Both the position numbers and the translations under genes were made by a program. 64,000 bases of DNA from a virus. Taxonomy: Duplodnaviria; Heunggongvirae; Uroviricota; Caudoviricetes. This document shows, piece by piece, positions 45,040-45,105 of the stretch. The stretch lies in IMG/VR virus record IMGVR_UViG_2823670853_000002; one strand, written 5' to 3'. The stretch's first letter is position 1, and each line of letters starts with the position of its first letter. A model generated the notes under the pieces. The model did no database searches. It saw only the letters and a list, made by a program, of their open reading frames with translations, and was not told where the DNA came from.

Positions 45040-45105
45040 ATTGCTCTAATAAAAAACGTGATGAGTGTACATCACGTTTTAAAAATATGGAATTATTAGA
45101 GCAAT
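45040..45105. promoter_or_regulatory. pair of opposed C1 operator-like sites flanking a perfect palindrome
   Basis: ATTGCTCTAATAAAAAA (plus) and ATTGCTCTAATAATT (minus) flank AAAACGTGATG-AGTGTA-CATCACGTTTT (11-bp stem). Confidence 0.5.

Follow-up and report, generated by a model that had tools for sequence, protein, structure and literature searches.

A probable junction of two C1-repressed transcription units in a P1-like phage-plasmid, with an RNA hairpin between opposed operators

The 66-base element at positions 45040-45105 of a 64,000-nucleotide stretch of Caudoviricetes DNA (IMG/VR record IMGVR_UViG_2823670853_000002, the whole of which is called the window here) is probably the junction of two C1-repressed units of a P1-like prophage, with all of its parts acting on the minus strand. 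It lies between two units that each have an operator of their own, so the original prediction, a block divided into units that are each repressed on their own, was right in substance. By its sequence the window is a P1-like phage-plasmid: P1, P7, RCS47, SJ46 and other P1-like phage-plasmids were 98-99% identical to the 1.6 kb around the element. A 102-kb plasmid of Escherichia albertii (NZ_CP043272.1) was 100% identical to window positions 44807-45420 (614 bp), where P1 reached only 98.3%.

Every gene between 42 and 48 kb is carried by the minus strand. The last gene of the upstream unit is pmgQ (hdmD in P7; 45107-45808, minus strand, stop codon TAA at 45109-45107), and the annotation of the P1 record AF234172 places the operator Oppp (former Op83) and the promoter PpmgN at the head of this unit, followed by pmgN-pmgO-pmgP-ppp-pmgQ. 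The downstream unit is opened by pmgR (P7 shtA; 44807-45025, minus strand), with the SD sequence AAGGTG at 45035-45030, and pmgS comes second (P7 shtB; 43543-44805, minus strand). Directly 3' of pmgS, at the end of the unit, lies a GC-rich hairpin with a T-run (43495-43523, minus strand, -17.6 kcal/mol), which is without terminator annotation in AF234172. Beyond pmgR-pmgS follow pap, Op88 and pmgT-pmgV. The c1 repressor gene was located at 26187-27038 on the plus strand, where the window shares 99.7% identity with c1-annotated DNA of phiW39 and SJ46; Pfam gave no match for PmgQ, PmgR or C1. The intergenic gap between pmgQ and pmgR measures 81 bp, and the 66-bp element fills nearly all of it. 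Coordinates of AF234172 (L001 in our set of loci) are converted to window coordinates by adding 41299.

The element consists of two inverted repeats, one nested in the other. The outer arms found by the repeat finder, 45040-45052 and 45093-45105 (ATTGCTCTAATAA / TTATTAGAGCAAT), match at 13/13 positions, and the inner arms, 45053-45063 and 45070-45080 (AAAACGTGATG / CATCACGTTTT), match at 11/11 positions around a loop of 6 nt. These nested repeats are real and far beyond chance, and the arrangement originally described, a palindrome with an 11-bp stem flanked by A-runs and T-runs between opposed operator-like sites, was found in full. Along the minus strand, the TAA of pmgQ is followed after 1 nt by the operator Op86a (ATTGCTCTAATAATTCC; 45089-45105, minus strand), an 8-nt spacer (ATATTTTT) and the hairpin (AAAACGTGATG-TACACT-CATCACGTTTT; 45053-45080, minus strand), which shares its strand with pmgQ and begins 26 nt past the pmgQ stop. 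On the 3' side of the hairpin come TTATTAGAGCAAT, which is the operator Op86b (ATTGCTCTAATAAAAAA; 45040-45056, plus strand) in reverse, then CCAT, the SD sequence, CACT and the ATG of pmgR. The two operators are set tail-to-tail with 32 bp between their tails. Several bases serve more than one part, since the TTGCTC of Op86a doubles as the predicted -35 of the promoter PpmgR, the predicted -10 (TAAAAC) falls in the 5' arm of the hairpin, and the A-rich tail of Op86b (45048-45056) is the template for a putative terminator U-tract on the minus strand (TTTTTTATT, same coordinates). All 66 bp are identical in P1 (AF234172), P7 (AF503408, L002) and the window.

On the evidence of annotation, consensus match, conservation and co-variation, Op86a and Op86b are C1 operators of the P1 type. 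The 17-bp consensus ATTGCTCTAATAAATTT has 15 matches in the window at no more than 3 mismatches, against 0.21 expected from shuffled sequence. Positions 1-13 of both sites equal the consensus, and their mismatches, three in each, all fall in positions 14-17, the part of the operator that varies among the 15 matches, while positions 1-11 are nearly invariant. In AF234172 the stretch 45040-45056 (plus strand) is annotated as 'monovalent C1-controlled operator OpmgRb; former Op86b' and 45089-45105 (minus strand) as 'OpmgRa; former Op86a; controls expression of pmgR and pmgS'; the P7 record AF503408 names the same sites Op(sht[b]) and Op(sht[a]). The original reading of the two sites as C1 operators is thus borne out by the public annotation and the consensus matches together. 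The name 'Op86' did not occur in the literature searched.

Two further observations concern the operator set as a whole. A second opposed pair of operator matches, set head-to-head and 66 bp apart, lies upstream of c1 (25529-25545, minus strand; 25612-25628, plus strand). Moreover, all 15 matches contain TCTAAT or ACTAAT, which agree with the -10 consensus at 5/6 or 4/6 positions, and judged from these hexamers a C1 site could, according to its context, overlap a hexamer resembling a -10 or else the -35 (TTGCTC).

To compare the element among relatives, 208 loci containing it were assembled, representing 23 distinct versions; the divergent relatives were added through their proteins, by tblastn against plasmids and phages and through the protein database, and not through the operator pattern. 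A PmgS scan of genome contigs contributed two near-identical loci and a PmgS-alignment scan of viral contigs contributed 80 near-identical ones, both of which inform on within-group diversity only. Outside the P1 group, the lineages were the Salmonella Newport plasmid pCFSAN001636 (L003; PmgQ 73% identity), the Cronobacter phage JK004 (L208; PmgS 69.5% identity), the JK004-like L218, the Salmonella loci L219/L220 (PmgS 71%), L215 (PmgS 63%) and L211/L213 (PmgS 53%). In all of these relatives the same order was kept: stop codon, operator, about 8 nt, hairpin, inverted operator, SD sequence and ATG.

The operators were strongly conserved in this comparison. Within the P1 group, in an unbiased sample collected via PmgS (77 loci, 40 haplotypes), the operator cores had 0/26 variable positions, the adjacent 5' UTR 6/14 and the third codon positions of pmgQ 17/50. 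The cores TTGCTCTAATAA were kept at both sites in the Newport, JK004 and L215 lineages despite flanks that could not be aligned. In L219/L220, the equivalents of Op86a, of Op86b and of the unlinked Op88, which lies 2 kb away, all read TTGTTCTAAT and not TTGCTCTAAT. Because this joint change includes an unlinked operator, it indicates that both sites are real repressor sites, and RNA pairing between the outer arms does not explain it; the Op86b equivalent, by tracking a lineage-wide shift of operator specificity, behaves as a true repressor site. In the 4.3-kb stretch of L219 (Salmonella enterica GCA_018041245.1), the three C1-type operators carrying TTGTTCTAAT lie at 1200-1209, 1254-1263 and 3341-3350, and the same was seen in L220, which points to a P1-like lineage whose repressor/operator specificity has shifted and which is possibly heteroimmune.

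The behavior of the outer arms also bears on whether the whole nested repeat acts as one long RNA hairpin, serving as an RNase III processing site or a stability element, or as a DNA cruciform. Its geometry would pair a 24-nt left arm with two right-hand segments of 11 and 13 nt that are separated by a 12-nt bulge, and the 66-nt RNA does fold at -26.4 kcal/mol (z = -10), with both outer arms changed at a paired position in L219. However, that change is common to the unlinked Op88 equivalent and so tracks repressor specificity, not pairing. The two L211/L213 operators disagree at positions 4 and 12, both of them tolerant; the outer arms are no longer complementary there, which likewise favors protein sites over one long hairpin. 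Operator conservation fully explains the outer arms, and we regard the long hairpin or cruciform as very unlikely.

Two more distant relatives, phage D6 and L216 (PmgS 27% identity), lacked the element. L216, a metagenomic contig, has a perfect 15-bp inverted repeat (AAGATACTAATTTAT ... ATAAATTAGTATCTT; 2203-2251) upstream of its pmgR-like gene, with arms 17 bp apart and no hairpin between them; it has only CTAAT in common with the P1 operator and no other copy in the 6.3-kb locus, and it may be the counterpart, in this distant relative, of the opposed operators. In phage D6 (L209), the pmgR-like gene is separated from the pmgS-like gene by sequence (2400-2450) that holds a GC-rich hairpin plus T-run (CCCGCCAATTAGCGGGTTTTTT) with direct ATTGCAT repeats on either side; no P1-type operator was found there.

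Between the operators, the inner palindrome folds at -13.4 kcal/mol on either strand, with z about -5. The core of its stem is 7 bp (CGTGATG/CATCACG, -8.5 kcal/mol), or 11 bp when the A-U pairs are counted. Across lineages the pairing was kept while the stem sequence changed: G-C pairs became A-U and A-U pairs became G-C in the Newport and JK004 lineages, L219 had one further A-U to G-C change, and L215 has a rebuilt, GC-rich stem that lies 3 nt out of the original register and still abuts TTTTTTATT. In a 21-sequence alignment 97% of cells were paired, versus 39-72% when the 3' partners were slid by 1-3 columns, and two stem pairs were changed on both sides. Many of the stem changes were G·U wobbles, for which pairing is possible only in RNA of the minus strand. 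The P1 group itself had 8/22 variable stem sites; variants that recurred in independent contigs were sense-compatible wobbles, and a few singletons carried pair-breaking mismatches.

The folding energies of the two strands diverged in the same direction. Sense and antisense values were both -13.4 kcal/mol in P1 and both -14.0 kcal/mol in Newport, and they were -14.0 and -5.8 kcal/mol in JK004, -7.5 and -3.7 kcal/mol in L218, -16.4 and -10.8 kcal/mol in L219, -16.5 and -11.0 kcal/mol in L215, -16.3 and -7.7 kcal/mol in L211, and -19.1 and -7.9 kcal/mol in L213. The sense hairpin was thus more stable by 4-11 kcal/mol in 6/8 lineages, and the antisense hairpin was never the more stable of the two. 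A run of five or six U followed the stem on its 3' side in 6/8 lineages. Pairing that is kept, together with wobbles compatible with the sense strand only, argues for selection on a hairpin and U-run in the RNA of the coding strand, and it speaks against the palindrome as a bidirectional terminator, as a DNA cruciform or as a dyad site recognized by its sequence.

Considering first the terminator that would stop transcription from both sides, as originally proposed, its appeal comes from the P1 and Newport sequences, in which the palindrome is perfect, the two strands fold equally well, an A-run precedes the stem and a T-run follows it. The surroundings do not fit. The 42-48 kb region has no plus-strand gene, the tail on the plus strand is only UUUU followed by AAAAA, and in 6/8 lineages the G·U changes pair only on the sense strand. 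To score both strands we used a terminator discriminant of the d'Aubenton-Carafa type, which combines stem energy per nucleotide with a T-tail score; all of its scores are indicative only. By this indicative measure the discriminant was negative on every antisense strand (-18 to -75), and a bidirectional terminator therefore seems highly improbable. What stands of the proposal is the terminator, which the sense hairpin and its U-run make likely; its action in both directions does not, given that the genes are all on the minus strand and the antisense hairpin has decayed.

A symmetric DNA site for a dimeric protein, whether Lpa, a host factor or another regulator, would instead use the palindrome half AACGTGATG as its half-site. 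The dyad is perfect in P1, and AACGTGATG occurs twice elsewhere in the window; with the two copies in the palindrome itself this makes 4 copies versus 0.67 expected, and the two extra copies are within chance. However, the half-site is not conserved: it becomes ACATGGTG, GCGTGGTG, GGCATG or GTGTGGTG by compensatory changes that keep the pairing, and the JK004 dyad is mismatched at 3 positions in the DNA, all of them G·U pairs when read as RNA. With regard to Lpa, the annotated -22 boxes of AF234172 (AAATGACTA, AAGTTACTT, ATGTGACTT) were compared with 45000-45140, and the best site on either strand had 3/9 mismatches. With no annotated 9-bp -22 box within 2 mismatches, an Lpa-dependent late promoter was rejected as well. 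The suggestion that the palindrome half is a protein-binding site finds no favor in a sequence that changes while its pairing is kept, and we consider it extremely improbable.

The hairpin is most likely a one-directional intrinsic terminator closing the pmgN-pmgQ unit, a reading based on folding, covariation and a discriminant with positive values for the sense strand alone. Directly behind the stem, on the minus strand, comes the U-tract UUUUUUAUU. The discriminant of the window sense strand was +10.7 (indicative); as indicative scores, those of the sense strand were positive in five lineages (+8 to +23), and the evident pmgS terminator scored +12.6. L211/L213 have a degenerate U-run (CUUGAUU) and a negative sense discriminant. 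With so short a core stem, termination may be partial. A terminator scan of the window did not report the hairpin at 45053-45080, probably because extension of the stem into the A/T runs consumes the T tail. Rfam had no family at the element, the palindrome is without annotation in the GenBank records of P1 and P7, and no terminator feature occurs in the 13 kb of AF234172 inspected. The literature searched contained no term-seq or RACE data and no transcript start or end for the site.

The start of the downstream unit is the weakest link of the junction reading. AF234172 predicts a sigma-70 promoter, PpmgR (45076-45104, minus strand), with its -35 TTGCTC (45104-45099) inside Op86a, a spacer of 17 nt and its -10 TAAAAC at 45081-45076. 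It agrees with the sigma-70 consensus at 7/12 positions, other alignments in the same 115 nt scored equal or better, and a stricter promoter scan did not list it. In its favor, the Op88/P2pmgT module shares its hexamers and spacing, and most operators of the window have a TA-starting hexamer on their 3' side at exactly the spacing of PpmgR. P1 and Newport retain the -10, and L211/L213 come near it (TAAAGG/TAAGGT); in JK004, L218, L219 and L215 it reads TGAAGC or TGCGGC, and there the -10 is spoiled by substitutions that leave the hairpin intact or make it stronger. The expectation of promoters in both directions was not upheld, only one being predicted, and that one leftward.

Such a weak and unconserved -10, set against a hairpin and two operators that are all kept, speaks for the hairpin as an element of the pmgR mRNA 5' leader, acting in stability or translational control, with transcription starting upstream or arriving by read-through only and the operators serving as roadblocks. 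Against this, a U-run stands directly 3' of the stem in 6/8 lineages, and the hexamers of Op88/P2pmgT are identical to those of PpmgR. Knock-down data add a little: pmgR was reported to be essential (PMC9024508), and CRISPRi on the upstream genes pmgO, pmgP, ppp and pmgQ caused no plating defect (PMC10695390), which would count against a leader fed by the upstream unit. The argument is weak, however, as CRISPRi on pmgR itself was likewise without defect (PMC10695390), and because the pmgR knock-down has no phenotype these data are uninformative on an independent pmgR promoter. On balance, we judge a leader element unlikely.

Returning to the junction of two repressed units, we infer from the sequence how its parts would act. 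Transcripts of the upstream unit (pmgN...ppp-pmgQ) would end at the intrinsic terminator, formed by the RNA hairpin from 45080 to 45053 and the U-tract behind it. The pmgR-pmgS unit would most likely start at PpmgR, at about 45067-45070, which is in the loop and about 7 nt past the -10, leaving its own transcript unable to fold into the hairpin. During lysogeny, C1 at Op86a would mask the -35, while C1 at Op86b (about +13 to +29) would cover the DNA of the U-tract and stop any transcription that initiates or reads through. Actual termination, the point where transcription begins and the division of labor between the operators are each conditional on this reading of the DNA.

Beyond the junction itself, the terminator and Op86b might form one composite device, working by repressor-assisted termination or as a roadblock, an extension that we offer as a tentative and rather doubtful possibility. 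The tail of Op86b deviates from the consensus, with AAATTT replaced by AAAAAA, exactly as an uninterrupted U-run requires. On the composite reading, the tail would have drifted in order to encode the U-tract, and bound C1 would sit exactly at the polymerase pause. If this were true, a leaky terminator would be tight in the lysogen and permissive for read-through from late promoters upstream once C1 is inactivated, and the opposed pair would be a bivalent operator split by insertion of a hairpin.

Both operators and the promoter prediction are already known from the public annotation of P1 and P7. What the present comparison adds is evidence for a hairpin in the sense-strand RNA, which most likely acts as a terminator and shields the essential pmgR-pmgS unit from the preceding one; the overlay of terminator, promoter and operator on the same bases; and the finding that both operators follow a specificity shift in one Salmonella lineage. 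Its importance beyond P1 biology is limited. Possible uses are the re-annotation of P1 transcription units and the use of the 66-bp module as a compact repressible insulator.

Compared with intrinsic terminators of enterobacteria and their phages, the element has the usual features, namely a G/C-containing stem-loop followed by a U-run, co-oriented with the preceding gene past its stop codon, and a covarying stem. It differs in that its core is short and only moderately stable, the template of its U-tract is an operator tail and its 5' arm holds a predicted -10. The terminator is likely to be of this ordinary intrinsic type, though unannotated in GenBank, and mildly unusual only in the tight overlay of terminator, promoter and operator. 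A related module within the window is Op88/P2pmgT (42935-42964, minus strand), which is identical at 26/30 positions to the segment from Op86a to the -10 and has the same TTGCTC -35, 17-nt spacer and TAAAAC -10. In contrast to the Op86 element, it has a single operator, no inverted operator downstream and no hairpin over the -10. Just 3' of Op88, the pmgT leader contains a GC-rich hairpin (42893-42915) whose T-run is on the plus (antisense) strand. The bivalent C1 operators of P1 (58768-58795, which by position is the ban operator Op72a/b) resemble the Op86 pair in being two asymmetric 17-bp sites set tail-to-tail. Their tails, however, overlap by 6 bp within a total of 28 bp, whereas the Op86 sites stand apart with the hairpin between them, and each is called 'monovalent' in GenBank; a bivalent operator was rejected for the Op86 pair because tails 32 bp apart do not overlap. 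The nearest known systems are OpmgRa/OpmgRb with PpmgR in P1 and Op(sht[a])/Op(sht[b]) in P7, with which the window agrees in the 66-bp sequence, in the position between pmgQ and pmgR, in the orientation of the parts and in the promoter hexamers.
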